Program-made: the position numbers and the translations under genes
The notes under the pieces: model-generated
The model's input: the letters and a program-made list of their open reading frames with translations, nothing else
What the model was told of the DNA's origin: nothing
The model's database searches: none
Part shown: in pieces, positions 23,089-51,249 of the stretch
Position numbering within the stretch: the stretch's first letter is position 1
Layout of the letters: each line of letters opens with the position of its first letter
Source of the DNA: an uncultured Chloroflexia bacterium
GTDB lineage: Bacteria; Chloroflexota; Limnocylindria; Limnocylindrales; CSP1-4
Reading direction: 5' to 3'
Assembly: GCA_963813335.1 (NCBI GenBank)
Contig: CAWEYL010000003.1
Location: 512,001 to 576,000, forward strand
DNA length: 64,000 bases

Positions 23089-23101
23089 GGCGGTCGGCGC
23101 C

Positions 23102-24358: not shown

Positions 24359-24365
24359 GGCGGCC

Positions 24366-24957: not shown

Positions 24958-24974
<17 letters not shown>
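24366..24974 (-). CDS. DUF1638 protein
   Basis: IGCGAL, YADCGTGG, HCYEFY, FYLTDF and RLVYLAQ motifs. Confidence 0.85.
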
Positions 24975-25659
<685 letters not shown>

Positions 25660-25710
25660 CGGGATCCGTCGCTCCGTGTCGTCGTGCCTGCGTCGCGTGG
25701 CGTGGTGCGT

Positions 25711-25747
25711 GGTTCCACGATGTGGAACCGTACCGTATGATGGAACC
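25711..25747. promoter_or_regulatory. Tandem IclR-type operator sites
   Basis: Palindrome GGTTCCAC-GAT-GTGGAACC, then a degenerate copy GTACCGT-ATG-ATGGAAC overlapping TATGAT. Confidence 0.7.
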
Positions 25748-25778
25748 GCGACCCGGAATCTAGCCGACAGGGAGGCCC

Positions 25779-26529
25779 ATGTCCAGCGTCCAGGCCATCA
25801 GGCGGGCCTTCGACGTGCTCAGCGCGCTCGCGGCCGGCCCGCTCGGGGTCACCGAGGTCGCGGATCGCTCCGGCCTGCCCAAGTCGACGGCGGCGCGGAT
25901 GCTCGCGACGCTGGTCCACGAGGGCGCCGTCGAGCAGGTGCCGGGCGACTCGCGCTACCGGCTCGGGCCGCGCATGGCGACGCTGGCCGCGGGGCTGACG
26001 CCGGCCCGCTCGCTGGCCGCGGTGGCGCATGCCTCGCTGGCGGCCCTGGCCGCGTCGGCCGGCGAGGCCGCCGGCCTGTCGGTCCCGGACGGCGACCTCG
26101 TCCACTACATCGACCAGGTGGACACGCCCGAACCCGGTCTCGGTCCGCGACTGGACCGGCAGCCGGGTCCCGCTGCACGCCGTCTCCTCCGGCCAGGTGC
26201 TGCTGGCGTTCCGGCCGCCCGGCGCCATCGAGCGCTACCTCGAGCGGCCGCTGGAACGGTTCACGCCGCGGACCGTCGTGGATCCCGACGCGCTCCGCGA
26301 GCGGCTGCGGGCCATCCGTCGCGACGGATACGCCTGGGTCCTCGAGGAGTTCGACGAGGGGATCGCGTCGGTGGCCGCGCCGATCGCGGACGGGTCCGGC
26401 GAGGTCATCGCCGCGGTCCACCTCCACGGGCCGTCGTACCGCTTCCCCGCGGACGGGGCGGCCGAGGTGATCGCCGAGGCCGTGGTCGGTGCCGCGGCCC
26501 GGATCGCGAAGGATCTGCGACGGACGTAG
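25779..26529 (+). CDS. IclR family regulator (frameshift near 26125)
   Basis: HTH GLPKSTAAR; effector domain VPLHAVSSGQ, GYA, SVAAPI. Confidence 0.9.
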
Positions 26530-26601
26530 CAGCGGGAAGTGGCGCCGGCGTCCCGACGACGGGGAGTGGGGCCGTGGACATGACGACGGGGAGTCGCGCC
26601 G

Positions 26602-26876
26602 CCGGCCGGCCGGGCCGCGATGCCGGCTGTCGAGCGACCCGGCATGACGCTCATCCACAGAACGCTATGGCCGATGCATGGCGGATCCTCGGCCTGGGGG
26701 ACCCGTTCGGTCGACCATCGGACTCGTGCCTGAGCACGAGATCGGCTGCTCAGCCGGCCGATCGGCGTGTCCACCCGACCGGTCAGGCCCTCCGAGGACG
26801 TCCGACCGGCCATTACGTTCTGTCCATGGTCGTTGTGCCGGGTCGCGGCTCCACCGGGCATCGCGGCACCGACCGG
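26602..26876 (+). ncRNA. Long rod-like structured RNA candidate
   Basis: About eight nested helices (up to 16 bp), G-U pairs on the + strand and two apical hairpins. Confidence 0.45.
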
Positions 26877-27040
26877 GCAACGCCCCGCCTCCGCCCGCCC
26901 GCGCCCGCCACGGGCCTACGGATCGAGCCTTCATCCCCTCTTCATGGCCCGCCGGCATCCTGTGGCCACGCCGCGAACCCACGCGGCCCAGCAGTCCGTC
27001 CCCGTGCTCACCGCGGGGCTCTGGTAGGAAGGAGTTCGTC

Positions 27041-27586
27041 TTGGCGAACCACCGACGCCGCTCGCTCGCCGGCAGCCTGCTCGTCCTGAGCGGACTGACC
27101 GCCGCCCTCGTCGCCCCGGCGGCCACCTTCGCCGCCTCGCCCGACGCAACACCCGCCACGACCAACTGCAGCGAGACCCACTGGCCCGTCTCCGTGCAGG
27201 GCGTGCCGCTGACCCTCAAGGCGGGCGCGCGGGCCGGCGACTACATCTGGCACAGCTCGACCGGGTGGCACCTGCGCGTGACCCATCCCGGGTCGGCGAA
27301 GGTCACGTTCACCGGTCGCATCGTCTCGAGCGCGCCCATGACCTTCAAGCCGGCACGACTCGAGAAGGGCGACACGATCACCCTGAGCGCCGACAAGAAG
27401 ACGCTGACCTACAAGTTCTACAACTACGGCAAGATCGACGGCATCGACTTCAAGACCGCGTGCGCCCAGCGGCTGCGGTTCTCGGCCTCGATCAACGGCA
27501 ACAAGCTCGCGACGAGCCGGATCATGCTCGGCACGCATGGGCGGCACCCGCTCGAGAACCCGTTCGTGGTCATCAAGATCGTCTGA
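27041..27586 (+). CDS. Secreted hypothetical protein
   Basis: AAGGAG RBS, TTG start, signal peptide, beta-rich mature part (YIWHSSTGWHLRVT). Confidence 0.75.
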   Translation: MANHRRRSLAGSLLVLSGLTAALVAPAATFAASPDATPATTNCSETHWPVSVQGVPLTLKAGARAGDYIWHSSTGWHLRVTHPGSAKVTFTGRIVSSAPMTFKPARLEKGDTITLSADKKTLTYKFYNYGKIDGIDFKTACAQRLRFSASINGNKLATSRIMLGTHGRHPLENPFVVIKIV

Positions 27587-27644: not shown

Positions 27645-28367
27645 CTAGGACGTGGTGACCGGCGCGCCCCGCCCCGGCGCCTCGAGCGGCGTCATGCGGT
27701 GCTCGGCGATCAGCGTCTGGGCGTCGAACTGGCCGCGGCCCAGGACGAACCAGATCGCGGTGACCGGCACCTCGCCGATGTTGGCGAGGCGGTGCGGGAT
27801 CGACGAGTCGATCGAGATCGCGTCGCCGGGCCTCAGCACGTACTCCTCGAAGCCGATGCGCACCTGGAGCGACCCGGTCAGGACGTAGCCCCACTCATGG
27901 CCGGCGTGGCGCTGGTAGGCGTCCTCCGGGCTCGACGCGCCGCCGACCTCGTAGGTCACGTGCAGGAACTCGATGCCGGGCTCCGACATCGTCGTCAGGC
28001 GCTCCCATTCCACGCCGGACGCGAGGCGGATGCGGTGCCGGTCGACGGCATGCTGGACCGGCGCCCCGGGCGCCATCGTGCCGACCGTCCCGGGCTGCGC
28101 CGGCACCGGCGCGGCCTCGGCCGGGCGCCGGTCGTTGAACAGCAGCTCGTCGAGCGAGACGTCGAGCTCCCCGGCGATCGCGTACAGCGTGCTGACCGAC
28201 GGGTTCGCGCGGCCGGTCTCGATCTGCGAGATCAGGCTCGGGGAGACGCCGAGGCGGTCGGCCAGCTCGCGCAGGCTGAGCCCGCGTCCGCGCCGCGCCT
28301 CGCGCAGGGCGTCGCCCATCTCCGGGTAGTCCAGCTTGCCGTTCCGTGGAGTTCGAGCCGTGGCCAA
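27645..28367 (-). CDS. XRE-HTH plus cupin regulator
   Basis: SLRELA...SQIETGRANPSVSTL; cupin HAGHEWGYVL...PH. Confidence 0.9.
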   Translation of the reverse strand: MATARTPRNGKLDYPEMGDALREARRGRGLSLRELADRLGVSPSLISQIETGRANPSVSTLYAIAGELDVSLDELLFNDRRPAEAAPVPAQPGTVGTMAPGAPVQHAVDRHRIRLASGVEWERLTTMSEPGIEFLHVTYEVGGASSPEDAYQRHAGHEWGYVLTGSLQVRIGFEEYVLRPGDAISIDSSIPHRLANIGEVPVTAIWFVLGRGQFDAQTLIAEHRMTPLEAPGRGAPVTTS

Positions 28368-28452
28368 GCGCCTGCGTCCTTCGGTCGTGCCTGGGGCCTG
28401 ATGGTCCTGATTATCGGCGTCGGCGGGACGACCCGCCGATCGGCTCGGTGGC

Positions 28453-29157
28453 CTAGCGACAGTGCCACCCTCCGTCGACGATGAGGTCGACGCCGTTCAC
28501 CCCGGTGTTCTCGAGCAGGAACACGGTGGCGTCGACGATCTCGGCCATCGTGGTCAGCCGCTCGATCGGCGTCTCCGAGGTGTATCGCGCGATGGCCGCC
28601 GGCTTCTCGGACCAGTACGGGCTGTCCCCGACGACGCCGGGATGGATGGAGTTGACCCGGCGCGGCTTGAGCTCCTCGACGAGCGTCCGCGTCAGCCCCA
28701 CGACCCCGCCGTTGACGGTCGTGACGGTGGTCGAGCCCGGATACGGCCGCTCCTTGGCCATCCCGCCGAAGAGCACGAGCGAGGCGTCGTCGGTGAGCCG
28801 GTCGCGCAGGGCGTGGACGACCTCGGTGTAGCCCACCAGCTTCAGCGTGACGAGGCGGATCGCGCGGACGAGGTCGTAGTCGGCGACGGTGTTCTGGTCG
28901 CGGTCGATGGCGGCGAGGACGAGCCGGCGGACCGGCCCGACGCCGGCGAGGGCCGGTCCGATCGACGTCGGCTCGGCGAGGTCGAAGGCGAGCCCGGTGG
29001 TCGCGCCGCCGACCTCGGCGACCGCGGCCGCGACGTTCGCCGGATCCTGCCCGGTCAGGACGACCGTGCCGCCCTTCGATGCGTAGTGCCGCGCGATCTC
29101 CTGCCCGATCGCCCGGGTGCCCCCGACGACGACCACCGCTCCTGCAGCCTCGTTCAC
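28453..29157 (-). CDS. Atypical SDR oxidoreductase
   Basis: VVGGTRAIG Rossmann motif and RVNSIHPG; no YxxxK at the expected position. Confidence 0.8.
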   Translation of the reverse strand: MNEAAGAVVVVGGTRAIGQEIARHYASKGGTVVLTGQDPANVAAAVAEVGGATTGLAFDLAEPTSIGPALAGVGPVRRLVLAAIDRDQNTVADYDLVRAIRLVTLKLVGYTEVVHALRDRLTDDASLVLFGGMAKERPYPGSTTVTTVNGGVVGLTRTLVEELKPRRVNSIHPGVVGDSPYWSEKPAAIARYTSETPIERLTTMAEIVDATVFLLENTGVNGVDLIVDGGWHCR

Positions 29158-30077
29158 GATCGCTCCTCCGTTCTGCTGGTCTCGTAGCGCTCCCAGTCGC
29201 GGATCCAGCGATAGGAGTGGCGCGCCGGCGGCTGCGGGGCCTGGGTCTCGATCCAGCGGACCCGTTCGTCGCCGGTGTTGTAGAAGCCGTGGACCGCGCC
29301 CACGCCGGCGAACGCGACGTCGCCGGGCCGGAACACGTAGTGCTGGCCCTCGAACTCGCCCTCGATCTCGCCGGCGAGGAAGACGTACGCCTCCTCGAAC
29401 GGGTGGTCGTGCGCCTGGGCGGCGCCGCCCAGCTCGTAGTCGACGGTGAACATCGTCACGTGGTCCGCGCCGGACTGGTGGTCGACCAGCATCTTCACCG
29501 AGATCCCGCTGTAGACCACGAGCGCGGTGTCCCGCCCGGCCGACGCGCGGCCGCGCGCCTCGTCCTTGACGCGCAAGCGTCTCGAGCTGGGGGCCGGTCC
29601 CGTCGTAGTGGCCGACCAGCCGGAGGGTCGGGTCGCCGAAGGGCGGCCGTTTCGCGGCCGCGTCCATCGCGGCCAGGTCCTGGGCCGGCTCGAAGAAGGT
29701 GTCCTTCCGCCCGGCGTCCGGCGGCAGCCGCTGCGGCGATGCCAGCGACAGCATCCGGACCGGCGTCGCGTGCTGCTGTTCCCGAGCGCGTGGCGGTAGC
29801 CGGTCGGCATCAGGGCGTAGTCGCCCGGGACGAGGCGATGGAACGCGCCGGCGATCTCGAGCAGCAGCTCGCCCTCGAGGATGTAGAGCGTCTCCTCGAA
29901 GCTGTGGACGTGCGGGGCGAGCCAGCCGCCGGGCAGGATGGCGACCGCCGCGAGGTCCGTGTGGACCGCGCCCTGCGCCCGGCCGACGAGGGGGGCGCGG
30001 GCGAGCCCCGACGAGGTGGCGCTGGCGGGAGCCGGATGGTCGACGAACGACCAGTCGATGCGACCGACGGAATGCAT
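29154..30077 (-). CDS. Bicupin protein (two frameshifts)
   Basis: Two cupin motifs: HVHSFEETLYILEGE...H and HDHPFEEAYVFLAGE...H. Confidence 0.8.
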   Translation of the reverse strand: MHSVGRIDWSFVDHPAPASATSSGLARAPLVGRAQGAVHTDLAAVAILPGGWLAPHVHSFEETLYILEGELLLEIAGAFHRLVPGDYALMPTGYRHALGNSSTRRRSGCCRWHRRSGCRRTPGGRTPSSSRPRTWPRWTRPRNGRPSATRPSGWSATTTGPAPSSRRLRVKDEARGRASAGRDTALVVYSGISVKMLVDHQSGADHVTMFTVDYELGGAAQAHDHPFEEAYVFLAGEIEGEFEGQHYVFRPGDVAFAGVGAVHGFYNTGDERVRWIETQAPQPPARHSYRWIRDWERYETSRTEERS

Positions 30078-30098
30078 GGGTCCTGCTGGCTGGCTCCG

Positions 30099-31079
30099 CT
30101 ACTCGAACCGTCGCGACCAGGCGTCGACGCCGACGGCCAGGAGCAGGATGACACCGAGCGTGACCTGCTGGTAGAACGGGTCGAGCCCGAGCAGGTTGAA
30201 GCCGTTGGCGATGAGGGCGACGAACAGGCAGCCGAGGACCGTCCGACCGATCGTCCCCTCGCCGCCGAGGATGCTCGTGCCGCCGACGATGATGCCGGTC
30301 AGGACGGTGAAGGTCAGGAACTGGCCGCTGCTGGCCTGGGCGCTGAGCACCCGCGACGCGTCGAGGATCCCGGCCATGGCCGCGGCCGTGCCGCTCAGCG
30401 CGAAGGTCGCGACCCGGATGGCGTCGACCCGGACACCCCCGAGCCGCGCGGCCTGGGCGTTGCCGCCCGTCGCGTAGACATAGCGGCCGAACGTGGTCCG
30501 GCTCAGGAGGATGAAGGCGAGGACCGCGATGATGATCATCATCCAGGCGCCGCTCGTGATGCCCAGGATCTTGGTGGCCGCGAACGCCTGGAAGTCGAGG
30601 CGGTCGAGGGCGACGACGAGGTTGCCCTTGGTCACGATCGCCGCGATCCCGCTCACGACGAAGGTCATCGCCAGGGTCCCGATGAGGGGATTGATCCGGA
30701 ACCGGGTGACGATGATCCCGTTCGCGAGGCCGACGGCCAGGCCGACCGCCAGGCCGGCCAGGATCCCCACGGGCGCGGAGACCGCGGTCGCGGTCTGGAG
30801 CGACACGGCGGCCGCGAGCCCGTAGATCGCCCCGATCGAGAGGTCGATGCCACCGGCGATCAGCACGAAGGTGCCGGCGCAGGCCACGATGATGATCCCG
30901 GCCTGCTGGTCGAGGATGTTGGTGAGGTTGGCGACCTTCAGGAACGGCGGCGAGATGATCGCCAGCACGACGAACGCGATCAGGAACGGGATGAGGATCC
31001 CGGCCCGGCCGACGACCCGCCCGAGGCGCTGCGACAGCGGGGCGTCAGGCTGGCTGGCGGGCACCGCCTCCGTGCTCAT
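30099..31079 (-). CDS. Sugar-type (RbsC-like) ABC permease
   Basis: GGIDLSIG, FGRYVYATGGN and GGTSILGGEG motifs. Confidence 0.9.
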   Translation of the reverse strand: MSTEAVPASQPDAPLSQRLGRVVGRAGILIPFLIAFVVLAIISPPFLKVANLTNILDQQAGIIIVACAGTFVLIAGGIDLSIGAIYGLAAAVSLQTATAVSAPVGILAGLAVGLAVGLANGIIVTRFRINPLIGTLAMTFVVSGIAAIVTKGNLVVALDRLDFQAFAATKILGITSGAWMMIIIAVLAFILLSRTTFGRYVYATGGNAQAARLGGVRVDAIRVATFALSGTAAAMAGILDASRVLSAQASSGQFLTFTVLTGIIVGGTSILGGEGTIGRTVLGCLFVALIANGFNLLGLDPFYQQVTLGVILLLAVGVDAWSRRFE

Positions 31080-32590
31080 GCCGCGCTCGAAGTGGTCGTG
31101 CCGAACGCTGCACCCACGATCGCCTCCTCCGTCATGTCCGGACCCGACAGCTCCGCGACGAGGCGCCCGGCGCGCATCACGAGCACCCGATGCGCCAGCC
31201 CGAGGATCTCCTCGACCTCGTTGGAGATGAGCAGGATCGCCAGCCCGTCCGCGGCGAGCTTGACCAGGACCTCGTAGATGTCCCGCTTGGCCCCGACGTC
31301 GATCCCGCGGGTCGGCTCGTCCGCGAGGAGCACACCCGGGTCGATCAGCAGCGACCGGGCGAACAGGAGCTTCTGCTGGTTGCCGCCGGACAGCGATCCG
31401 GCCGGCGCGTCGACGAGGTCGGTCCCGTCCACCCGCGCGAGCGCGGCACGCACCTCGGCACGCTCCGGGCCGCGCCGGACGAACCCGAGGCGCTGGAAGC
31501 GCTCCAGGCTGGTGAGGCTGACGTTCTCGCGGATCGGGCGGCGGAGGATCAGCCCATCGTCCTTGCGCGACTCCGGGATCATCGCCACGCCGGCCTTGAT
31601 CGACGCGGCCGGCTGCCCGCCGAGCGGCTCGCCGCGCACGAGGACTCGTCCGGCGGTGACGGGGTCCGCCCCGTAGATCGCGCGGGCGAGCTCCGAGCGC
31701 CCCGCACCGATCAGGCCGGCCAGGCCCACGATCTCGCCGGCTCGCAGGGTCAGCGACACGTCGGCGACGCCGAGGGCCGTCAGGCCGTCGATGGTGATCG
31801 CGACCGGGGCATCGGGCGGCGGCGGCTGCTTCGGTGGATACGTCCGACTGGCCGGCCGGCCGAGCATCCCGGTGACGAGGCTCGCCTCGGTCTCGTCGGC
31901 GGTCGGCCCGGTCCGCACGACGCGCCCGTCGCGCAGGACGGTGACGACATCGGACAGGTCGAGCACCTCGCCGAGGAAGTGCGAGACGAGGATGACCGTG
32001 TGCCCGCGCGCGCGGAGCGTGCGCACGACCTCGTGCAGCCGCTCCATCTCCGTCGCCGACAGGCTGGCCGTCGGCTCGTCGAAGACGATCAGGTCGGCGT
32101 CCCGGGCCAGGGCGCGGAGGATCTCGACCTGCTGCTGCTGGGCGAGCGGCAGCCGGCCGACGATCGACCCTGCCCTGATCTCGAAGCCCGCCTCCGCGAC
32201 GAGCCGGTCGAAGCGGTCCCGGAGGGTGCCCCGCTCGATGAAGCCGGCTCGCTTGGGCTCGGCTCCGAGGAAGACGTTCTCGGCGGCGGTCAGCCTGGGG
32301 ACCAGGGCGACCTCCTGGGCGACGAGGGCGATGCCCTGGGTCAGGGCCTCCCGGGGGGAGCGGAACGAGACGGTCTGCCCGCGCAGGACCAGGTCGCCCT
32401 GGTCCTGCGGGAAGACGCCGGCGATGATCTTGCCGAGCGTCGACTTGCCGGCGCCGTTCTCGCCGACGAACGCGTGGACCGTGCCGGCCCGGACCGCCAC
32501 CGAGACCTCGTCGAGGGCTCGGGTCGCCCCGAAGGACTTGCCGAGCCCGCGAACGTCGAGGTGGGTGGCGTCGCTGGCCGCGGTGGCCAT
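31076..32590 (-). CDS. Sugar ABC ATPase (RbsA-like)
   Basis: GENGAGKST, LSGGNQQK and DEPTRGIDVGAK motifs. Confidence 0.92.
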   Translation of the reverse strand: MATAASDATHLDVRGLGKSFGATRALDEVSVAVRAGTVHAFVGENGAGKSTLGKIIAGVFPQDQGDLVLRGQTVSFRSPREALTQGIALVAQEVALVPRLTAAENVFLGAEPKRAGFIERGTLRDRFDRLVAEAGFEIRAGSIVGRLPLAQQQQVEILRALARDADLIVFDEPTASLSATEMERLHEVVRTLRARGHTVILVSHFLGEVLDLSDVVTVLRDGRVVRTGPTADETEASLVTGMLGRPASRTYPPKQPPPPDAPVAITIDGLTALGVADVSLTLRAGEIVGLAGLIGAGRSELARAIYGADPVTAGRVLVRGEPLGGQPAASIKAGVAMIPESRKDDGLILRRPIRENVSLTSLERFQRLGFVRRGPERAEVRAALARVDGTDLVDAPAGSLSGGNQQKLLFARSLLIDPGVLLADEPTRGIDVGAKRDIYEVLVKLAADGLAILLISNEVEEILGLAHRVLVMRAGRLVAELSGPDMTEEAIVGAAFGTTTSSAA

Positions 32591-32614
32591 CGCGTCAGTC
32601 GACCTGGTCGGATC

Positions 32615-33703
32615 TCAGCCCGGCCACTCCGCGAGCGGCAGGAAGTGATCGACGTTGGCCTTGGTGACGACGCCGCCGTCCTGCAGCGATGCGAGCGGGT
32701 CGACGCCCGGGGCGGGCGTACCCGTCCGGATCGCCTGGATGAGCTGCGTCGTGCCCTGGCCGCCCTCGGTGGCCGGCATCTGCATGACGGTCCCGAAACG
32801 CTCGCCGGACGCGATGCCCTGGAGCGCGATCGTGCCGCCGCCGTAGCCGACGAGGCGGACCTTGTCCTTGATGTCCTTGACCGCGACGACCGCACCGGTG
32901 ATGGCCTGGTCGGCGCTGACGATGACCGAGACGTCCGGGTGGGCCGCGACGATGTCCTGCGACGCCTTCAGGCCGAGGGCCGTCGTGTAGAAGGACTCGC
33001 CCGTGTCGGACACGACCTTGATCTCGGGGTGGCTCGCGATCGCCGTGTCGAACGCGGCCTTGAGGGCCTGGTCCAGCGCGGCGGCCTTGACCGACCAGAT
33101 GTAGCCGATGTTGCAGGGGTTGGCCTTGAGGTCGGCGCAGGCGGTGACCACGAGCTCGCCGATCTTGCGTCCGAGCTCGCTCGGGACGAAGGCGACGTTC
33201 GCGCTCAGCCCGGGGACCTGCGAGTTCGGGGTGGTCATGTCGGAGCCGAGCACCTGGTCGATGTTGCCGACGGCGATGCCGGCGGCGATCGCCTTCTTGA
33301 CGTCCTCGACGAGCCCGGCGCCGTAGAGCGGCTGGGTGATGATCGCGTCGTACTTGCCGGACGCGGTCGCGTCCTGGAGCTGCTTGGTCTGGGCGGCCGG
33401 GTCGAGGTTCGCGTCGAAGACGGTCAGCTTGGCGTTGCCGGCGGCCGCGGCGGCCTGGGCGGCCGCGAGCATCGGGGCGTCGTAGCTGTTGGCCACGGCG
33501 AACGAGAGATAGGCGATCTCGAGGGTCTTGGCCGGCGCCGAGGCGCTGGCGGCCTCGCTGGGCGCCGCGACGCTCGGCGCGGTCGTCGGTGCGGCGCTCG
33601 GCGCCGTCGAGGCGGCCGGGCTGCTGCAGGCTGCGGCGATGACGATGACTCCGAACAAGCCCAGCAGGCGTCCCCGCCCGGGCTGGCCGTTTGGTGCGCG
33701 CAT
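32615..33703 (-). CDS. Sugar-type ABC substrate-binding lipoprotein
   Basis: Lipobox AAAC, Ser/Ala/Pro linker, Peripla_BP_4-like pattern. Confidence 0.88.
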   Translation of the reverse strand: MRAPNGQPGRGRLLGLFGVIVIAAACSSPAASTAPSAAPTTAPSVAAPSEAASASAPAKTLEIAYLSFAVANSYDAPMLAAAQAAAAAGNAKLTVFDANLDPAAQTKQLQDATASGKYDAIITQPLYGAGLVEDVKKAIAAGIAVGNIDQVLGSDMTTPNSQVPGLSANVAFVPSELGRKIGELVVTACADLKANPCNIGYIWSVKAAALDQALKAAFDTAIASHPEIKVVSDTGESFYTTALGLKASQDIVAAHPDVSVIVSADQAITGAVVAVKDIKDKVRLVGYGGGTIALQGIASGERFGTVMQMPATEGGQGTTQLIQAIRTGTPAPGVDPLASLQDGGVVTKANVDHFLPLAEWPG

Positions 33704-33745
33704 GTGTCCTCCTCCACCGATCCAGGCGCCTCGGCGCTGCGGCGG

Positions 33746-33923
33746 AGTGTGCAGAGCCGGTTAACAGGTGTCAAGCCACATTGCAAGATTGTGGAGTGGT
33801 GTCGATCATCTGTTCGCTGCCGTTGTCGGCGTGGTCGCGTGCTCGGATGCGACCGGAACGACACTGAACACGCCACCGCGGCGCTCCCACCGGACTTGCG
33901 CGGCCGGACCGGCTGTGTAGCAT
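33746..33923. promoter_or_regulatory. Divergent promoter region
   Basis: Minus strand TTGACA-N17-CACACT (33774-33746); plus strand TTGCGC-N16-TAGCAT with TG extension; palindrome CCACA-N9-TGTGG. Confidence 0.5.
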
Positions 33924-33990
33924 GGATGAACACTTCGGCCCTCCTGCACGGATCCGTCGATCCGGCGTTCGACCGCACTGGGGTACTGCG

Positions 33991-35229
33991 ATGACCCGAT
34001 CCTTTGCTTCGCCGGGTTCGATGAACGTCGACTGGGAGGAGCGCTGGAACGTCGACCGGCTCCGCACCTACCGGCTGGGACGCGCCCGCGCGGCGCTCGC
34101 GGCCTCGGAGGTGGGCGCGGTCCTGCTGTTCGACTTCAACAACATCCGCTACGTCACCAGCACCCACATCGGCGAGTGGGCGCGCGACAAGATGACCCGC
34201 TACGCCCTGCTGACCCGCGGCGGCGATCCGCACATCTGGGACTTCGGCTCGGCCGCCAGGCACCACCGGCTCAACTGCCCGTGGATGCGGCCGGAGAACA
34301 TCCACGCCGGGATGATCGGGCTGCGCGGGGCGGTCGCCCCGGACGCCGGCCTGTTCCGCGCCGCCGCGAAGGAGATCGCCCGGATCCTCAAGGACGAGGG
34401 CGCGGCCGACATGCCCATCGGCGTCGATATCGTGGAACCGCCGATGCTGGCGGCCCTCGCCGAGGAGGGCGTCAGGGTGCTCGACGGCCAGCAGGTGATG
34501 CTCGACGCCCGCGAGGTCAAGTCGATCGACGAGATCATCCTGCTCAACACCGCCTGCGCGATGGTCGACGGGGCGTACCAGATGCTCGCCGAGCAGCTCA
34601 AGCCGGGCGTCCGCGAGAGCGAGCTGGTGGCGAACGTCACGAAGGCGCTCTTCGACATGGGCTCGGAGCACGTCGACAACATCAACGCCGTGTCGGGCGA
34701 GCGCTGCAGCCCGCACCCGCACGTCTTCAGCGACCGGATCATCCGCCCGGGCGACCAGGCCTTCTTCGACATCATCCACACCTTCGTCGGCTACAAGACC
34801 TGCTACTACCGGACGTTCGTGGTGGGCAAGGGCACGGACCCGCAGCGCGACGCCTACAAGCAGGCCCGCGAATGGATCGACGCCTCGATCGAGCTGATGC
34901 GCCCGGGCGTGACCACGGACCAGGTCGCGAAGGTCTGGCCGAAGGCCCAGGAGTTCGGCTTCGACAACGAGATGGAGTGCTTCGGGCTGCAGTTCGGCCA
35001 CAGCGTCGGGCTGTTCCTCCACGAGCGGCCGATCATCAGCCGGCTCAACTCGATCGAGCACCCGGTCGAGCTGAAGGAGGGCATGGTCATCGCGCTCGAG
35101 ACCTACTGCCCGGCCAAGGACGGCGTGTCCGCCGCCCGCATCGAGGAGGAGGTCGTGATCACCGCCGACGGCCCGGTCGTCATCACCAAGTTCCCGTCGG
35201 ACGAGCTGTTCGTCGCCAACGCGTACTAG
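33991..35229 (+). CDS. M24 (Xaa-Pro peptidase/creatinase fold) protein
   Basis: FNNIRY, GHSVGLFLHERP, ALETY and RIEEEV motifs. Confidence 0.85.
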   Translation: MTRSFASPGSMNVDWEERWNVDRLRTYRLGRARAALAASEVGAVLLFDFNNIRYVTSTHIGEWARDKMTRYALLTRGGDPHIWDFGSAARHHRLNCPWMRPENIHAGMIGLRGAVAPDAGLFRAAAKEIARILKDEGAADMPIGVDIVEPPMLAALAEEGVRVLDGQQVMLDAREVKSIDEIILLNTACAMVDGAYQMLAEQLKPGVRESELVANVTKALFDMGSEHVDNINAVSGERCSPHPHVFSDRIIRPGDQAFFDIIHTFVGYKTCYYRTFVVGKGTDPQRDAYKQAREWIDASIELMRPGVTTDQVAKVWPKAQEFGFDNEMECFGLQFGHSVGLFLHERPIISRLNSIEHPVELKEGMVIALETYCPAKDGVSAARIEEEVVITADGPVVITKFPSDELFVANAY

Positions 35230-35242
35230 GAGCGTCGACCCG

Positions 35243-36243
35243 ATGGCGACCACCGCGCCCGACATCGAGCGGGCCACCCAGCTGCGGATGTACCGGACGA
35301 TGCAGGAGTGCCGGCTGTTCGAGGTCCGCGCCCAGGAGCTGTTCTTCGAGGGCCTGGTCCGGGGCACGACCCATCTCGGCGTCGGGCAGGAGGCGGTGGC
35401 GGCCGGCGTGGCCGCGGCGATGCGCGACGACGACTACACGTTCTGCACCTACCGCGGCCACAACCACACGCTCGCCCGGGGCGTGCCGATGGCGCCGATC
35501 TTCGCCGAGCTCTTCGGTCGCGGGACGGGGCTCCTCGGCGGCAAGGGCGGGTCGATGCACCTGACCAGCGTCGAGCACCACGCGATGGGCTCGTACGCGA
35601 TCGTCGGCGCGCACCTGCCGATCGCGCTGGGCGCCGCGTGGTCCGCGCAGTACCGCAAGTCCGGGCCAGGTCGCGGTCTGCTTCTTCGGCGACGGCACCA
35701 CCAACATCGGCGCGTTCCACGAGGCCCTCAACATGGCCGCGGTCTGGAAGGCCCCGGTGGTGTTCGTCTGCGAGAACAACCAGTACATGGAGTACACCGC
35801 CATCGGCGACGTCACGGCCGTGCCGCGGCCCGCCGCGGACCGGGCGAGCGCCTACGGCCTCGAGCCGATCGTCGTGGACGGCAACGACGTCGAGGCGGTC
35901 CACCGGGTGGCGCGGACCGCGGTCGACCGGGCGCGCGCCGGCGATGGGCCGTCGCTCATCGAGGCCATCACCTACCGCCACGGCGGCCACTCGCGCGCCG
36001 ACCCCGGCAAGTACCGGCCCGACGACGAGGTCGCCGCGTGGAAGGCGCGCGACCCCATCCCGGCCTACCGCGCGCAGCTGCTCGGCGAGGGCGCCGACGG
36101 GGCCGGCCTGGACGCCATCGACGCGGCCGCGGCCGACGCCGTCGCCGCTGCCGAGGCGATCGCCCGGGCGGCACCCGAGCCCAGCCCCGGACGTGCTGGA
36201 GACCCAGGTCTGGGCGGACGGAGGCTCGTCATGGCGGAATTGA
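35243..36243 (+). CDS. ThDP-dependent dehydrogenase E1 alpha (AcoA/PdhA-like; two frameshifts)
   Basis: GQEA, TYRGH, GKGGSMH, FFGDG...ENN and TYRHGGHS motifs. Confidence 0.88.
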
Positions 36244-37217
36244 CGTACCGCGCGGCGTTCGCCGCGGCGATCGCCCAGGAGATGGAGCGCGACCCGAGCG
36301 TCGTGCTCATCGGCGAGGACGTCGGCGCGGCCGGTGGCGTGTTCAAGCTGACCGAGGGCCTGTACGGGCGGTTCGGCGGCGAGCGCGTCCGCGACACGCC
36401 GATCAGCGAGCAGGCCATCGTCGGCGCGGCGATGGGCGCGGCGATGACCGGGCTGCGGCCGATCGCCGAGCTCATGTTCAGCGACTTCTTCGCGGTCGCC
36501 TGGGACATGGTCGCCAACCAGATCGCCAAGACCCGCTACATGACCGACGGCCAGGTCTCGCTGCCGCTGGTGCTCCACACCGCCAACGGGGCGGGCCTCC
36601 GCTTCGGCGCGCAGCACAGCCAGAGCGTCGAGAACTGGGCGATGGCGATCCCCGGGCTCAAGGTCGTCGCGCCGTCGACGCCGGCCGACGTGATGGGCCT
36701 GATGGCGGCCTCGATCCGCGACCCCGACCCGGTGGTCTTCTGCGCCTCGAAGGCGCTCCTCGCGACCAAGGGCGAGGTCCCCGACGGGGAGCACGTCGAC
36801 ACGCTCGGGACCGCGCGGGTCGTCCGCGCGGGCTCGGACGCCACGATCCTCGCGCTCGCCGCGATGGTGCCCAAGTCGATCGAGGCGGCCGACCGGCTCG
36901 CCGCCGAGCACGGCCTCGACATCGAGGTGATCGACCTGCGCTCGCTGGTGCCGCTCGACACCGCGACCATCCTCGCCTCGGTCAAGAAGACCAGCCGCGT
37001 GTTCACGGTCGAGGAGAACCCGCGCCTGTGCGGCTGGGGCGCCGAGATCGCCTCGATCATCGCGGACGACGGCTTCTACAGCCTCGACGCGCCGATCGTG
37101 CGGATCACCACCCCGCACATCCCGCTGCCGTCGGCGGCGGCCCTCGAGGACCTCGCGGTGCCGTCGGTCGAGCGCATCGCCGAGACCGTCAAGAGGCGAC
37201 TGGATGACGCCGCCTGA
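36231..37217 (+). CDS. ThDP-dependent dehydrogenase E1 beta
   Basis: GEDVG, DTPISE, QHSQ and IDLRSL motifs. Confidence 0.9.
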   Translation: MAELTYRAAFAAAIAQEMERDPSVVLIGEDVGAAGGVFKLTEGLYGRFGGERVRDTPISEQAIVGAAMGAAMTGLRPIAELMFSDFFAVAWDMVANQIAKTRYMTDGQVSLPLVLHTANGAGLRFGAQHSQSVENWAMAIPGLKVVAPSTPADVMGLMAASIRDPDPVVFCASKALLATKGEVPDGEHVDTLGTARVVRAGSDATILALAAMVPKSIEAADRLAAEHGLDIEVIDLRSLVPLDTATILASVKKTSRVFTVEENPRLCGWGAEIASIIADDGFYSLDAPIVRITTPHIPLPSAAALEDLAVPSVERIAETVKRRLDDAA

Positions 37218-38113
37218 CGGCCGACCCACCGTCGGGCTCCTCGGCTGCGGCCGGATGGGCTCGGCCATGGCCCGCGCGCTGGCCGCCGGCGGGTACGAGG
37301 TCGTGGCCTGGAACCGCTCGCCCGGACCGGCGGCCGAGCTGGCCGCGCGCGATCGGCGGGCGGGCCGTCGCGACGCCGGCCGACGTCGCCCGCGCGGCCG
37401 ACGTCTGCGTCTCGATGCTCGCCGACGGCGCGGCCGTGGACGCGGTCTACGGCGGCCCGGACGGGCTGCTGGCCGGGGCGCATCCCGGGAGCGTCTTCGC
37501 GGATGCCTCGACCGTGGCGCCGGCCACGCTGCGTGCCCATGCCGCCGCGGCGGCGGCCGCGGGAGCCGGCCTCCTGGACACGCCGGTCTCGGGCAGCGTC
37601 GGGCTCGCCCAGAGCGGCACGCTGACGATCATGGTGGGCGGGGATGCCGCGGACCTGGCGCGGGCGCGGCCCGTGCTCGACACCCTGGCCGCGACCGTCT
37701 TCCACATCGGCCCGCTGGGCACCGGCGCGGCGATGAAGCTCGCGGTGAACACCGTGATCTTCGGGCTCAACCAGGCGGTCGCGGAGAGCGTCCGCCTCGC
37801 GGAGGCCGCCGGCATCGACCGGCCGGCCGCGTACGACGTCCTCGCCGTCAGCGCCGTCGGGGCGCCGTACCTCGGCTACAAGCGGGACGCCTTCCTCGAG
37901 CCGGACACGACCCCGGTCGCGTTCTCGCTCGACCTGGCCGCCAAGGACCTGCGGCTCATCGCCGACCTCGCGGCAGCGGTCGGCGTCGAGCTGCCGCAGG
38001 CCGGCACGAACCTCGCCGCGATCGAATCGGCCGCCGCGTCGGGCGGCGGCGACCGCGACTTCTCGGCCGTGATGCGGCCCACCGTCGTCGGAAGCAAAGG
38101 AGGACCGGGCTGA
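37204..38113 (+). CDS. Beta-hydroxyacid dehydrogenase (HIBADH-like; frameshift near 37350)
   Basis: GCGRMG, DTPVSG, MKLAVN and KDL motifs. Confidence 0.85.
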
Positions 38114-38189
38114 CCGACCACTTGGCAGGGGCCGGCCGGCCCGTCGACCGAGCACACGCGATCGTCGAAGCAGCACAGAGGAGGCCGCA

Positions 38190-39584
38190 ATGAGCGAACG
38201 AACGCTGATCAAGGATGCCATCGTCCTCACGGTCGACCCCGACATCGGGGAGTTGCCGCGCGCGAGCATCCTCGTCGAGGACGGCAAGATCGCAGCCGTC
38301 GGTCCGGACGTGACCGCCGCCGACGCGAGGGTCATCGACGCGGCCGGCGACATCGTCATCCCGGGTTTCGTCGACACCCACCGGCACACCTGGGAGACGT
38401 CGATCCGGACCTGCGCCCCGGACTTCGCGCTGATCACCTACTTCGGGTCGATCCTCGACAAGTTCGCCCCGCACTACCGCCCCGACGACGTGCTGGCCGC
38501 GAACCGCTGGGGTGCGCTCGAGTGCCTCAACGCGGGGATCACCACGCTCGTCGACTGGTCGCACATCATGAACACGCCGGATCACGCGGACGCGGCGATC
38601 CACGGCCTCCAGGACACGGGCATCCGGTCGGTCTTCGCGTACGGGTTCGGGAACACCTCGCTCGTCGACTGGTGGTTCGGGCCCGACTACACGGGCAGCG
38701 TGCTGACCTCCGACGGCGCCGACGCCCGCCGCCTGCGCAAGCAGTACTTCAGCTCCGACGACCAGCTCGTGACGATGGCCCTCGCCACGCGCGGCACCGG
38801 GTTCTGCAAGCCGGACGTCGTCCGCCACGACTGGGAGCTGGCCAAGGAGCTCGACCTCAACATCACGGTCCACGTCGCCATGGACCGGTTCGGCTACACG
38901 AAGCTCCAGGTCCTCGCGCTGCGCGACATGGACCTGCTGTACCCGAACACGACCTACGTCCATGCCTCGCACTTCACCGACGAGGAGTGGGCGCTCGTCC
39001 GCGACTCCGGCGGGAACGTGTCCTTCGCCCCGCAGATCGAGGTCCAGATGGGCCACGGCTGGGCGCCCGCGGTGACCGCCCTCGCGTACGACGTGCCCAT
39101 CGGCCTGTCGTCCGACGTCGCCACCACCGCCCCGTCCGACCAGTTCACGCAGATGCGCTCGATCTTCGGCTCGGAGCGCGGCCGCAAGCACCAGGAGGCC
39201 TGGGACGCCGACCTCGACGGGCTCCAGGCGTCGCCCGGGCTCATCACCTCACGGCAGGTCCTGGAGTGGGCGACGCTCGGTGGCGCGAAGGTCGCCGGCA
39301 TCGCCGACCGGACCGGGTCGATCACGCCCGGCAAGCAGGCCGACCTCGTGATCATCGACGGGTCCGCCGTGAACGTGGCACCGGTCATCGACCCGGTGGG
39401 CGCGGTCGTCTGCGCCGCGGACGTCTCGAACGTCAAGACCGTCCTGGTCGGGGGCAACGCCCTCAAGGAGGACTTCCGGCTGAAGGCCTCGCTGGCCGCC
39501 CCGCGCAAGGACGTCGAGGCCAGCCGCGATTACCTCCTCGGGAAGTTCGGCGACCCGGAACCGGGCTGGCTCGCGCCCGCCTGA
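38190..39584 (+). CDS. Metal-dependent amidohydrolase (deaminase/chlorohydrolase-like)
   Basis: PGFVDTHRH, ITVH, YVHA, LSSD and GKQADLV motifs. Confidence 0.88.
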   Translation: MSERTLIKDAIVLTVDPDIGELPRASILVEDGKIAAVGPDVTAADARVIDAAGDIVIPGFVDTHRHTWETSIRTCAPDFALITYFGSILDKFAPHYRPDDVLAANRWGALECLNAGITTLVDWSHIMNTPDHADAAIHGLQDTGIRSVFAYGFGNTSLVDWWFGPDYTGSVLTSDGADARRLRKQYFSSDDQLVTMALATRGTGFCKPDVVRHDWELAKELDLNITVHVAMDRFGYTKLQVLALRDMDLLYPNTTYVHASHFTDEEWALVRDSGGNVSFAPQIEVQMGHGWAPAVTALAYDVPIGLSSDVATTAPSDQFTQMRSIFGSERGRKHQEAWDADLDGLQASPGLITSRQVLEWATLGGAKVAGIADRTGSITPGKQADLVIIDGSAVNVAPVIDPVGAVVCAADVSNVKTVLVGGNALKEDFRLKASLAAPRKDVEASRDYLLGKFGDPEPGWLAPA

Positions 39585-39634: not shown

Positions 39635-40486
39635 TTACGGGCCCGGCACGCTCCAGTCGATCCGCATCGACGCGCGGAGGATGCCGCCCGCTTCGAGGAT
39701 CGCGAGACCCGTCCTGGGCGCCTCGGCCTCCCCGCCGGCCAGCGCGTTCGGCCAGGCGGTCTGCGGTTCGACGCAGAACGCATGCGGCGGGGTGTAGACG
39801 ACCACCGAGCTCACCGGCGCGTCCCAGGAGATCCGCAGCTCCAGGTCCGGGAACGTCGCGACCGCGGGCGAGCGCGGGTCGACGTAGGCGTGGTCGACGT
39901 GGCGGCCGGCGATGGGCCGGCCCGGCCGCAGGTCGGTCATGCCGCGGACCGGGATCCGCTGGCCGGTCGGGATCAGGCCGCGCGTCTGCAGGACCTCGTC
40001 GGCATCGACGCGCAGCCGCGGCCCCGGCGCCTCGCGGCGGAACCACGGGTGCCAGCCGAGCGCGGCCGGCATCCGCCGCTCGGCCTCCACCTCGGCCTCG
40101 ATGTGCACGCCCGACGCCCCGAGGCGGAACCGCTGCCGGGCGACGCCGCCGAACGGCCAGCCGGCCGGGCCGAGGTCGCACGACAGCTCGGCCAGGTCCC
40201 CGTCGACGCGTGTGGCGGTCCAGGACCGGTCGAAGACGACGCCGTGGATCGCGTGCCGGCCGAGCGTCGGCGGCATGACGTAGCGCCGCCCGTCAAAGTC
40301 GAAGATGCCGTTCTCGAGGCGGCCCACCCAGGGTGCCATCAGGAAGCTGCCCCACTCGATCGAGCGGTCGGTCGCGTCCGGCGGCCCGACGAGGATCTCG
40401 CGCTCGCCGAGGCGCAGCGACGACAGCCGGCCGCCGCGATCGAGGTCGATGCCGAGCCGCGCGCTCCCCGCGACGAGGCCGATCAC
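39635..40486 (-). CDS. Aldose 1-epimerase family protein
   Basis: MAPWVGR, HAIHG, GWHPWF and CVEPQ motifs. Confidence 0.85.
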   Translation of the reverse strand: MIGLVAGSARLGIDLDRGGRLSSLRLGEREILVGPPDATDRSIEWGSFLMAPWVGRLENGIFDFDGRRYVMPPTLGRHAIHGVVFDRSWTATRVDGDLAELSCDLGPAGWPFGGVARQRFRLGASGVHIEAEVEAERRMPAALGWHPWFRREAPGPRLRVDADEVLQTRGLIPTGQRIPVRGMTDLRPGRPIAGRHVDHAYVDPRSPAVATFPDLELRISWDAPVSSVVVYTPPHAFCVEPQTAWPNALAGGEAEAPRTGLAILEAGGILRASMRIDWSVPGP

Positions 40487-41938
40487 GACCCGTGGGCCGG
40501 GGCGGCTGCCGCGAGCTCGATCGCGCCGCGGAAGGCGGCGATGCGGTCGCGCCGCTCGGCGTCCAGCGGCAGCGGATCCAGCAGCGTGCCGGCGCTGGTC
40601 CCCCAGCGGCGGGCGATCGCGGCCGGGTCCTCGTCGCGCCAGGCGGCGGTCGCCTGGACGGCGGCACCGATGGCCACCAGCTCGTCCGCGTCCGGGATCA
40701 GCACCGGTCGGCCGGAGAGGCGGCGCACGACGTCGACCCAGGTGCGGCCGCGCGACCCGCCGCCGACCAGCATCAGCGGCGCGGCGTCGTCGAGCCCGCC
40801 CACGGCGGTCCCGATCGCGTCGAGCGCCTCCAGCAGCGCCGCGGCGGCGCCCTCGTAGGTCGCCATCAGGATCTGCTGCGGCGTCGACGTGTGGCGGAGG
40901 CCGAGGATCGTGCCGGACGCCCCGGGCAGGTCCGGCGTGCGCTCGCCGTCGAGGTACGGGTAGACGACCACCGAGCCAGCCGGCGCGACGTCGTCGCGGT
41001 CGAGCCCGAGCCAGGCGGCGGTGCGGTCGACCGCGAGGGTGCAATTCAGGGTGCAGGCGAGCGGCAGGAAGCGACCCGAGGCGTCGGCGAAGCCGGCGAC
41101 GACCCCGCTCGGGTCGGCGGTGGGCCGCTCGGAGACCGCGAAGATCGTGCCCGACGTCCCGAGGCTCATCGCCGTCTGGCCGACGCCGAGCCCGAGGCCG
41201 AGGGCGGCGCCCATGTTGTCGCCGGTGCCGGGGCCGACCACCGTGCCGCGCGGCAGGCCAGTCTCGTCCACGACGGCGGCGGCCACCTCGCCGGCCGGCT
41301 CGCGCGGACCGAGGAGCCGCGGCAGCAGGCCGGCCGGCAGGGCCACGGCCGGGTGGTCGAGGATCTCCGGCTCGTAGGCGCCGCTGGTGGGCGACCACCA
41401 GCCCGTGCCGGAGGCGTCGCCGCGGTCCGTGGCGGCCGTGCCGGTCAGGCGACCGGTGATGTAGTCGTGCGGGAGCTGGACGGCCGCGGCCGCCGCGGCC
41501 GTCGCCGGCTCGGTGCGACGCAGCCAGGCCCACTTCGAGACCGTGAACGAGGCGTTGGGACGGAGGCCCGTCAGTCGCGCCCAGCGCTCTGCGCCCAGCT
41601 CGGCGGTCAGGCGCTCCGCGTCCGGCGCGGCACGCGTGTCGTTCCAGAGCGACGCATCCCGCAGCGGCGTCGCCGGCGGCGTCGAGGACGACCAGGCCGT
41701 GCTGCTGGCCCGCCACGGAGATCGCGCCGACATCGGCGGCCCGGCCGGTCTCCGCGAGCGCGTCGCGGACGGCGGCCCACCAGCCGCGCGGGTCGGACTC
41801 GCGGGCGCCGTCCGTGCCGGTGACGACGTGCGGTGCCTGCCCGCGCGCGACGACCGCGCCCGAGTCGGGATCGATCAGCAGGATCTTGGTCGACTGGGTC
41901 GAGCAATCGACCCCGGCGACGAGCCGTCCACCCGTCAC
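40483..41938 (-). CDS. xylB: Xylulokinase/FGGY kinase (frameshift near 41670)
   Basis: GVDCSTQSTK, GQQHG, LWND, DASGT, GTGDN and GERTP motifs. Confidence 0.85.
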
Positions 41939-41954
41939 GTGCGTCCCTTCCGCG

Positions 41955-42497
41955 TCACGCCTCGAGCGCGTCCCGAAGCCAGTCCCAAAGGTAGCGCACG
42001 AACGAGGGCCGGACGAGCACCCGGTACACGGGCTCCGGGGCGTCGGCGACGTGCCACAGCACGACGTTGGCGCGCGCAAGCAGGGTCTGCGCGCAACCGC
42101 CCGGCCGCAGCCCGCGCTCGAGGTCGAGCGCGCAGCCGGACGCGAGCAGGTCCGCGGCCCCGGACCCGGCGATCTCGATGCCGACCCGGTTCGCGGAGAC
42201 GTCCACGGTCGTCAGGAAGGCGTCCCCGGCTGCGGCCCGGAGGGCGGTCTCGATGGCGGGCGCGGTCCCGGCCGGGGCGCCCTCCCGCCCGACGACCAGC
42301 CACTCGTCGGGGCCGAGCCAGAGGACGTGTCCCTCGCCGTCGGTCGCGGCGGTCACGGTGTTCGGGGCGGTCGGCGGCCGGGCCGCGAGCGCCTCGCCGA
42401 TCCGTCCCAGGAGCGCGGCATCCGACGGGTCGGCGCGCATCGAGACCTGCGGGATCGGACCCAGCTCGCGGATCGTCACGTCGGTGTGCGCGGTCAT
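41955..42497 (-). CDS. soxG: Sarcosine oxidase gamma subunit
   Basis: WLGPDEWL and VRPSF motifs; operon position. Confidence 0.88.
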
Positions 42498-46591: not shown

Positions 46592-46724
46592 CCTCGAAGG
46601 GTAGCGCGGCGGTCGGGCCGGATGGACCTCGGGCCGACCTGACAGGCGGTCCGCCGCCTTGACGACGGCCGCGCCACCCCCGACCCTAGCGGCCCAGCCA
46701 GCGACGATCGAGTGAGGGATCCCG

Positions 46725-48194: not shown

Positions 48195-48236
48195 CGTCGG
48201 GCGGCCATCGCGTTCGTACGGAGGGTCAGCGCGACG

Positions 48237-51220: not shown

Positions 51221-51249
51221 ACCGGCCGCAGGAGGAGGAGCACACGAAG

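Follow-up and report, generated by a model that had tools for sequence, protein, structure and literature searches.

A Divergent M24–E1 Locus of Catabolic Type in a Limnocylindria-Like Chloroflexota Genome

The stretch of DNA analysed here, called the window throughout, covers 64 kb (positions 512,001 to 576,000 of contig CAWEYL010000003.1, GenBank assembly GCA_963813335.1) of a Limnocylindria-like Chloroflexota metagenome-assembled genome, and its positions 27645–39584 are occupied by two divergent operons of eleven genes built around an M24 metalloenzyme and a thiamine diphosphate (ThDP)-dependent E1 component. The conserved core of this locus consists of an M24 enzyme in whose metal site a Cys replaces an Asp, a heterotetrameric ThDP E1 whose two genes follow directly on that of M24, and a beta-hydroxyacid dehydrogenase. 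The reading preferred here, to which about an even chance is given, is that of a working, inducible catabolic locus, the Limnocylindria-specific form of a widespread uncharacterised module, in which the broken reading frames are assembly indels. The finding is real and uncharacterised, and it is less odd than first appeared. All eleven genes, which a first-pass annotation made from the letters alone had arranged in two divergent operons, were located at their coordinates by Pfam, NCBIfam and plots of third-position G+C (GC3). The same annotation had been unable to match the gene combination to a named pathway, and this holds, with every enzyme below NCBIfam equivalog cut-offs and no characterised pathway for the gene set found in the literature, supplementary tables lying outside that search.

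The G+C content of the window is 72%, which fills lists of open reading frames with false frames, so coding frames were called by GC3, a seven-state frame model, Pfam and NCBIfam. On the plus strand, the genes for the M24 enzyme, E1 alpha, E1 beta, a protein like 3-hydroxyisobutyrate dehydrogenase (HIBADH) and an amidohydrolase follow one another; on the minus strand lie those for an XRE-type regulator with a helix-turn-helix and a cupin domain, a short-chain dehydrogenase/reductase (SDR), a bicupin, and the CUT2-type permease, tandem ATPase and Peripla_BP_4 solute-binding protein (SBP) of an ATP-binding cassette (ABC) importer. A shared region of 287 bp separates the two operons. For comparison, a scan of one genome per species yielded at least 585 M24 relatives confirmed by tblastn, of which the best 80 (L003 to L082) were examined; the 30 loci with an M24 protein at least 80% identical to that of the window form the Limnocylindria set.

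The M24 enzyme, the E1 subunits and the hydroxyacid dehydrogenase

The M24 gene (33991–35229, plus strand; Peptidase_M24, 2e-36) encodes a two-domain metalloenzyme of a distinct family. Its AlphaFold2 model, with a predicted local distance difference test (pLDDT) score of 79, is matched over the full length by the two-domain pita-bread fold; the top fold match is DddP (TM score 0.77, 21% identity), followed by prolidases, DoeA and creatinase. DddP is also the top full-length sequence match and the N-terminal domain is DddP-like, while the best sequence match of the catalytic domain is prolidase 1pv9 (7.4e-24). It was found by alignment of 83 sequences that the metal-site residues D260, C271, H337, E370 and E385 are invariant, and that Cys271, within the invariant motif GY.TCYYRT of the 83 family members, takes the second metal-ligand position in place of an Asp. 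The position of the catalytic Asp of DddP (Asp377, mutated in entry 4s01) is occupied by a His-Glu pair of prolidase type; His344 aligns with the Asp of the DddP motif ..DEWP, and His stands at this position in all but 2 of the 83 members.

No characterised M24 enzyme that was tried accounts for the protein. DddP was rejected at 121 bits against an NCBIfam cut-off of 600, with neither the catalytic Asp nor the D,D,H,E,E ligands matched; the two DoeA models, whose cut-offs are 613 and 575 bits, gave 67 and 59; similarity to creatinase chains is low, at 1.7e-8; and the dinuclear D,D,H,E,E site of prolidase (M24B) is broken by the Cys in place of the second Asp. DddP, creatinase and DoeA (EutD) have the pita-bread fold in common with the cluster enzyme (TM 0.77 for DddP and 0.69–0.71 for DoeA and creatinase), but their identity to it is only about 21%, and it differs from them by its Cys for the second Asp and, in the case of DddP, by its His for the Asp. 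Judging by entry titles, creatine, ectoine and dimethylsulfoniopropionate (DMSP), all of them small zwitterionic solutes, are the substrates of those non-peptidase enzymes of this fold that have been characterised; DddP, creatinase and DoeA work within catabolic clusters, and the cluster M24 enzyme likewise stands in a locus of catabolic type. Prolidases share the motifs GH..G..HE and E..E with it, but the cluster enzyme differs from them by its Cys ligand, its DddP-like N-terminal domain and its small-molecule catabolic gene context. Since a prolidase-type His-Glu replaces the DddP Asp, hydrolysis is favoured as the probable reaction of the M24 enzyme.

The E1 alpha gene (35243–36243, plus strand) is spread over three frames, with positions 2–122 and 146–299 of the E1_dh profile in different ones; its ThDP motif GDG..NN is intact when read across the frame break (FFGDGTTNIG...CENNQY). 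Its stop codon at 36241–36243 overlaps the start, at 36231, of the intact E1 beta gene (36231–37217, plus strand; NF006667, 361 bits against a cut-off of 321). In an alignment of E1 beta with 1w85_B and 1um9_B, a Glu (DTPISE) and a His (AQHSQ) are conserved; the former is the catalytic Glu of such subunits and the latter serves the reductive acylation of lipoyl-E2. E1 alpha falls below both pyruvate dehydrogenase (PDH) equivalog cut-offs, the cluster E1 and, from the related Marinobacterium cluster, the E2 score best on pyruvate dehydrogenase models, and solved-structure matches leave the E1 undecided between the pyruvate and branched-chain types.

Profile searches confirmed the earlier statement that the cluster holds no lipoyl E2 (PF00198) and no E3. 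By tblastn with one E2 query, an E2 gene was found beside the cluster in 0 of the 30 Limnocylindria loci versus 10 of 55 other loci, and none of the 30 carries an E3. The description of the E1 as E2-less is thus right for this cluster but limited to the Limnocylindria form, since the orthologous E1 genes of other phyla (62–78% identity) adjoin an E2 gene and sometimes an E3 gene. The search elsewhere in the genome that the first-pass annotation had proposed found both partners on contig C1: an E3 dihydrolipoyl dehydrogenase (TIGR01350, 518 bits against a cut-off of 409) lies beside a second E1 alpha/beta pair, and the single E2 locus of the genome, with lipoyl and catalytic parts, is 5.7 kb from them. 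As the catalytic Glu and the His for lipoyl acylation are kept, it is possible that the cluster E1 shares these housekeeping E2 and E3 components. The sequence FCASK, to which attention had been drawn as a departure from the usual motif of E1 beta, is indeed present at residue 170, where the other aligned relatives mostly have FCEHK, VCEHK or FFEQK; however, it is a quirk of a sublineage, confined among the aligned relatives to the window and its close relatives L003 and L010; it carries no general message on the E1 beta family and was rejected as a sign of an E2-free E1.

Compared with PdhAB, BkdAB and AcoAB, the cluster has the same heterotetrameric E1 with its ThDP motif and, in the beta subunit, the Glu and the His; its E1 beta passes the NF006667 subfamily cut-off, and, as in those systems, an E2 gene and at times an E3 gene come after the orthologous E1 genes of other phyla. 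For acetoin systems, there is the further likeness that SDRs near the roseobacter and Marinobacterium clusters resemble acetoin reductase (201–257 bits against a cut-off of 304). The differences are the absence of E2 and E3 from this cluster and from all 30 Limnocylindria loci, and the failure of E1 alpha to reach either PDH equivalog cut-off; moreover, we know of no described dehydrogenase complex with an E1 directly downstream of an M24 gene. As judged from its genes, the locus appears to combine a non-peptidase M24 enzyme with an operon that works in the manner of those for 2-oxo acid or acetoin dehydrogenases, and it is a member of no named system tested. In the roseobacter form on Phaeobacter and Pacificitalea plasmids (L083, 14280–17901, and L085, 15271–18928), the E2 is apparently split, with a lipoyl-bearing protein and a separate catalytic-domain protein encoded on either side of a GabD-like aldehyde dehydrogenase (ALDH) gene.

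The third member of the core is the HIBADH-family beta-hydroxyacid dehydrogenase (37204–38113, plus strand). NAD_binding_2 is recognised at its N-terminus, and the remainder, in the next frame, scores 163 bits on tartronate-semialdehyde reductase, 131 on HIBADH and 125 on L-threonate dehydrogenase, all below cut-off. The nearest matches of the module's HIBADH-like proteins are 2-(hydroxymethyl)glutarate dehydrogenase and the solved structures 3pef and 3pdu, presumably Geobacter 4-hydroxybutyrate or succinic semialdehyde reductases, while the ALDH that accompanies the module at other loci is closest to Escherichia coli GabD. Together, these matches point to the semialdehyde of a short acid as the likely compound handled by the two enzymes.

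Distribution of the locus in Limnocylindria and other phyla

Across the Limnocylindria set, E1 alpha adjoins M24 in 30 of 30 loci, and E1 beta and the HIBADH-like gene are each present in all 27 loci of sufficient length. The amidohydrolase is found in 27 of the 30, the other three ending before its position; a homologue of the regulator is adjacent in 28, the SDR is present in 27, and the bicupin occurs in 29, against 0 of 55 loci outside the set, while the SBP is found in 13 of 30. The bicupin, the cluster-type amidohydrolase and the XRE-cupin regulator are confined to this set, and the near-identical M24 proteins carry the label Chloroflexota or Candidatus Limnocylindrales. The proposal of a conserved catabolic-type locus was thereby borne out: the genes are kept together across the 30 nearest loci, and the lack of shared conservation that had been named as evidence against it was not what was found. 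Twenty wetland and soil sequencing runs hold 0.21–0.41 of the sampled words; they are taken as evidence neither on habitat nor on the frame breaks.

The remaining 50 loci belong to Acidimicrobiia, Actinomycetes (Streptomyces, Kibdelosporangium and Actinocrispum), Dormibacterota, Alpha- and Gammaproteobacteria, Verrucomicrobiota and Myxococcota, with M24 proteins 64–71% identical to that of the window. As a core pair, M24 and E1 alpha/beta are met again at 65–71% identity in Actinomycetota, Dormibacterota, both of these proteobacterial classes and Verrucomicrobiota. M24 stands next to an orthologous E1 alpha in 22 of the 42 loci from other phyla with enough flank for this comparison, and E1 of some kind is present in 26 of 37 with enough flank for that count. 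The usual partners there are a LacI regulator, an HIBADH-like gene just upstream of M24, a GabD-like ALDH (554–583 bits on the succinate-semialdehyde dehydrogenase subfamily model, cut-off 646), E2, and in some loci E3 and a vicinal oxygen chelate (VOC) protein; LacI, the GabD-like ALDH, E2 and E3 give the module a catabolic make-up. Annotated plasmids of Phaeobacter, Pacificitalea and Streptomyces carry the same set of partners. Importers vary among loci and include the CUT2, Liv, tripartite ATP-independent periplasmic (TRAP), NMT1/SsuA and major facilitator superfamily types. Relatives of the M24 enzyme are very common: in a protein search, at least 8000 candidates were scored, all at an E-value of 1e-20 or better. 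Among the papers found, none gives a substrate for it.

Three of these loci, proteobacterial and equipped with a TRAP importer, also carry an anion permease of the TauE/SafE type (L076, 8050–8826; L077, 11319–12068; L046, 7664–8410), located between the LacI and HIBADH-like genes or just before M24. No E1 gene was found in the examined stretches of L076 and L077, and that of L046 stops just past the start of E1 alpha.

Accessory genes, control region and surroundings

The amidohydrolase (38190–39584, plus strand) belongs to the NF006056 (PRK08204) subfamily, at 533 bits against a cut-off of 391; this is the only model that it passes, the model itself is named 'hypothetical protein', and equivalog models give at most 163 bits. 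Its HxH motif is at residues 64–66, and H228, assigned as the beta-5 His by position only, is followed by VAM and not by xxE. The deamination step suggested by the first-pass annotation was made uncertain by this result, as the HxxE of the cog0402 deaminases and chlorohydrolases (AtzA/TrzA, guanine and 8-oxoguanine deaminase) is lacking at the presumed beta-5 His. The SDR (28453–29157, minus strand; adh_short_C2, 5.3e-22; PRK07041-like) reaches 107 bits on NF005449 against a cut-off of 257, and it has no YxxxK at the canonical position, for which reason the label 'atypical' that it had been given is fair. Both domains of the bicupin (29154–30077, minus strand; Cupin_2 in two stretches, 1.1e-25) retain the full HxH..E / H metal motifs in an alignment with six relatives; as (S)-ureidoglycine aminohydrolase, it was rejected at no more than 37 bits against cut-offs of 200 to 445.

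The importer consists of a CUT2-type ABC permease like AraH and RbsC (30099–31079; BPD_transp_2, 9.1e-33), a tandem-domain ABC ATPase like AraG and RbsA (31076–32590; ABC_tran in two stretches, 1.4e-50) and a sugar-type periplasmic SBP (32615–33703; Peripla_BP_4, 2.1e-26), all on the minus strand. The Peripla_BP_4, BPD_transp_2 and tandem ATPase components of the CUT2 importers AraFGH and RbsABC are thus all present, but all three stay below equivalog cut-offs; for instance, the AraH model gives 217 bits on the permease against a cut-off of 378 and the AraG model 467 on the ATPase against 689. The SBP is distant from any solved one, its best relative being 5hsg at only 4.1e-14. Solved-structure searches with the SBP, bicupin and amidohydrolase returned distant or unnamed matches only, and matches in a protein atlas bear generic names only.

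The regulator (27645–28367, minus strand; HTH_3, 1.8e-18; Cupin_2, 4.8e-17) has the architecture of PuuR, an XRE helix-turn-helix followed by a C-terminal cupin sensor domain, but it differs in its score, far below cut-off, and in the absence of Puu enzymes near the cluster; as PuuR itself, it was rejected at 60 bits against a cut-off of 211. The putative divergent control region (33704–33990) was studied by aligning the 260 bases upstream of M24 in the window and 26 relatives. Ahead of the M24 gene, CTTGCG is followed, after a spacer of about 17 bases, by TGTGTAGCATGGATGAAC, and the transporter side carries GTGTCAAGCC..ATTGCAA; these conserved motifs are possible promoters and an operator.

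The cluster sits inside an island for the breakdown of methylated amines and osmolytes (betaine, sarcosine). Directly beside it, at 19503–27089, is a corrinoid methyltransferase module comprising an MttB-family enzyme (674 bits), RACo, a pterin-binding protein, DUF1638, a B12-binding protein and a frame-broken IclR gene, in which the methyltransferase, corrinoid protein, RACo and pterin-binding protein span 19.5–25.7 kb. Parts of this module (the IclR C-domain, the B12-binding protein and DUF1638) accompany the cluster in 8 to 11 of the 30 relatives, and MttB and RACo themselves do so in one. On the other side, a betaine/sarcosine block (41955–54837) holds sarcosine oxidase subunits (42–47 kb), an ALDH, an OpuA-type ABC importer and a dimethylglycine-dehydrogenase-like enzyme. 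This ALDH (46725–48194) is like betaine-aldehyde dehydrogenase, at 612 bits against a cut-off of 669, and being 35–41% identical to the cluster ALDHs, it was rejected as the missing GabD-like partner; an ALDH of the betaine type directly follows the amidohydrolase in four relatives. Just past the amidohydrolase, at 39635–42079 on the minus strand, are a frame-broken FGGY sugar kinase gene and an aldose 1-epimerase gene, which adjoin the cluster only in L003 among L003 to L082.

Candidate pathway, alternatives and meaning

We infer every step of the mechanism that follows. A small polar solute, probably an osmolyte-like compound that contains nitrogen, would enter through the CUT2 importer. Upstream conversions specific to the lineage would fall to the bicupin, the atypical SDR and the amidohydrolase of the PRK08204 subfamily, and the M24 enzyme would hydrolyse a C–N bond of the amide or amidine type. 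The E1 could then decarboxylate or cleave the resulting 2-oxo acid or acyloin, and either pass the acyl group to the E2 and E3 of contig C1 or release an aldehyde, while the HIBADH-like enzyme would interconvert a semialdehyde and a hydroxy acid. Both operons would be controlled by the XRE-cupin regulator from the shared 287-bp region. In view of the betaine and corrinoid surroundings, and of the creatine, ectoine and DMSP used by fold relatives, the leading guess for the substrate is a small zwitterionic solute that probably contains nitrogen.

Several observations weigh against this reading of a working catabolic locus. No substrate is assigned, and no enzyme here reaches an NCBIfam equivalog cut-off; a sugar-type SBP suits a nitrogen-rich zwitterion poorly, and both the HxxE of the amidohydrolase and the canonical YxxxK of the SDR are missing. 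M24 occurs without any E1 in 11 of the 37 loci from other phyla with enough flank, which means that the coupling of M24 and E1 is not obligate, although in one of the eleven, L068, an orthologous E1 lies at a distance of about 5 kb. Five frame breaks per 12 kb are somewhat denser than the window average. In addition, the M24 enzyme is matched best by a lyase, DddP, both in fold and over its full-length sequence, so it may cleave its substrate as a lyase instead of hydrolysing it.

This last point is the starting point of an organosulfonate route, which is considered improbable. In it, the M24 enzyme would be a DddP-like beta-elimination lyase that converts, for instance, 3-sulfolactate to pyruvate and sulfite, the HIBADH-like and GabD-like enzymes would oxidise dihydroxypropanesulfonate (DHPS) via sulfolactaldehyde to sulfolactate, and the PDH-like E1, with E2 and E3, would consume the pyruvate. 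Besides the DddP matches, the sulfolactaldehyde reductase model recognises the cluster HIBADH-like proteins at 1e-31 to 4e-40, and the E1 and the Marinobacterium E2 prefer pyruvate dehydrogenase models, as such a route would have it; however, the DddP Asp position is His in nearly the whole M24 family (all but 2 of 83), and the literature search found no paper connecting M24 enzymes with sulfolactate or DHPS. For the cluster ALDH, the solved structure 8c54, which we take to be a Rhizobium sulfolactaldehyde dehydrogenase, gives a match of 434 bits but is outscored by E. coli GabD. Sulfur-linked neighbours also exist, namely the TauE-like permease in three loci, binding proteins of the SsuA/NMT1 type in L043, L048 and L087, a luciferase-like monooxygenase with a flavin reductase in L087, rhodanese in L043 and L055, and sulfite reductase in L075; they are nevertheless found in a small minority of loci, all come from common families, and no sulfite-handling gene is present in the cluster of the window or of the 30 close relatives.

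It might also be argued that this copy of the locus is decaying and non-functional, in which case the five single-base frame breaks in three of the eleven genes (E1 alpha, HIBADH-like and bicupin) would be real mutations. In E1 alpha, comparison with 18–30 relatives places one extra base at about 35660–35667 (TCCGGGCC) and a second one at 36185–36188 (CCCC). The second moves the tail of the alpha subunit into the beta frame and makes alpha and beta look fused; a fusion was rejected as an artefact of this base, as the relatives have two genes in different frames. The HIBADH-like gene has an extra base at about 37345–37351 relative to its relatives, and the middle third of the bicupin (about 29576–29777) is out of frame between two compensating shifts and reads as Arg/Pro/Ser-rich nonsense, according to the frame model and the six-relative alignment. 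The density of breaks, somewhat above the average for the window as a whole (about one per 4.3 kb), and the likewise broken IclR and FGGY genes adjoining the cluster would suit decay. Against this, each break is one extra base in a G/C run, the intact parts are 80–99% identical to the nearest relative, L003, and L003 carries different indels in the same gene. Similar breaks occur across the whole window, where 15 of 43 same-strand frame changes in the GC3 frame model have no nearby stop, so that broken frames are a property of the window and not of the cluster; the housekeeping E2 gene is also split between frames (G000:C1:1212761-1213427). An assembly of 7 contigs and 81% completeness fits an error-rich long-read product, which is probably rich in single-base indels within G/C runs. 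Decay is accordingly regarded as unlikely, and assembly indels are the most likely explanation of the five breaks.

Another substrate class was considered in the hydroxy-acid amides pantothenate and pantoate, for which the M24 enzyme would be an amide hydrolase, the HIBADH-like and GabD-like enzymes would oxidise the terminal alcohol to the acid, and E1, E2 and E3 would take up a branched 2-oxo acid. PMC10393543 describes the pantothenase gene as still unassigned in 2023, which leaves room for such a role. TRAP carboxylate importers are found in three loci, and genes for acyl-CoA dehydrogenase, enoyl-CoA hydratase and an epimerase-like VOC protein are beside some clusters. Work on Pseudomonas in the 1960s is said to have shown that the classical pathway needs four enzymes, namely a hydrolase, an alcohol dehydrogenase, an aldehyde dehydrogenase and a 2-oxoisovalerate dehydrogenase, of which the first three types are represented in the core cluster, together with a candidate E1. 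However, no dimethylmalate dehydrogenase (isocitrate/isopropylmalate type) is present in any annotated locus, solved-structure matches do not tell whether the E1 is of the pyruvate or the branched-chain type, and the bicupin, amidohydrolase and sugar-type importer of the window have no role in the route. Pantothenase was, moreover, reportedly characterised in early enzymology as an acyl-enzyme hydrolase and not as a metalloenzyme, and the route is considered very improbable. Equally hard to credit is a chance neighbourhood of two unrelated operons, one for a sugar importer, bicupin and SDR and the other for the M24–E1 module, since even where the importer is missing, the M24 operon keeps the bicupin (29 of 30), SDR (27 of 30) and regulator (28 of 30) as neighbours, although the importer is absent from 17 of the 30 Limnocylindria loci and M24–E1 occurs outside Limnocylindria without the bicupin, cluster-type SDR or SBP.

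Beyond the preferred reading of a working locus, a broader and more tentative proposal, with the balance of probability against it, is that M24–E1 may be the heart of an undescribed catabolic pathway distributed globally in soil, wetland and marine bacteria of several phyla. Its substrate would be an abundant small metabolite, such as an osmolyte-like zwitterion, a C3/C4 sulfonate or a vitamin-derived hydroxy-acid amide; the new Asp-Cys-His-Glu-Glu site would carry out chemistry unseen in this fold and hand its product to a dedicated E1, and Limnocylindria would add their own upstream enzymes and borrow housekeeping E2 and E3. Identification of the substrate would tell what thousands of genes now annotated as 'Xaa-Pro peptidase' and 'E1 component' do, and it could reveal a flux of carbon, nitrogen or sulfur in soils and oceans. 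Limnocylindria are uncultured soil bacteria, and a defined growth substrate could help to cultivate them.

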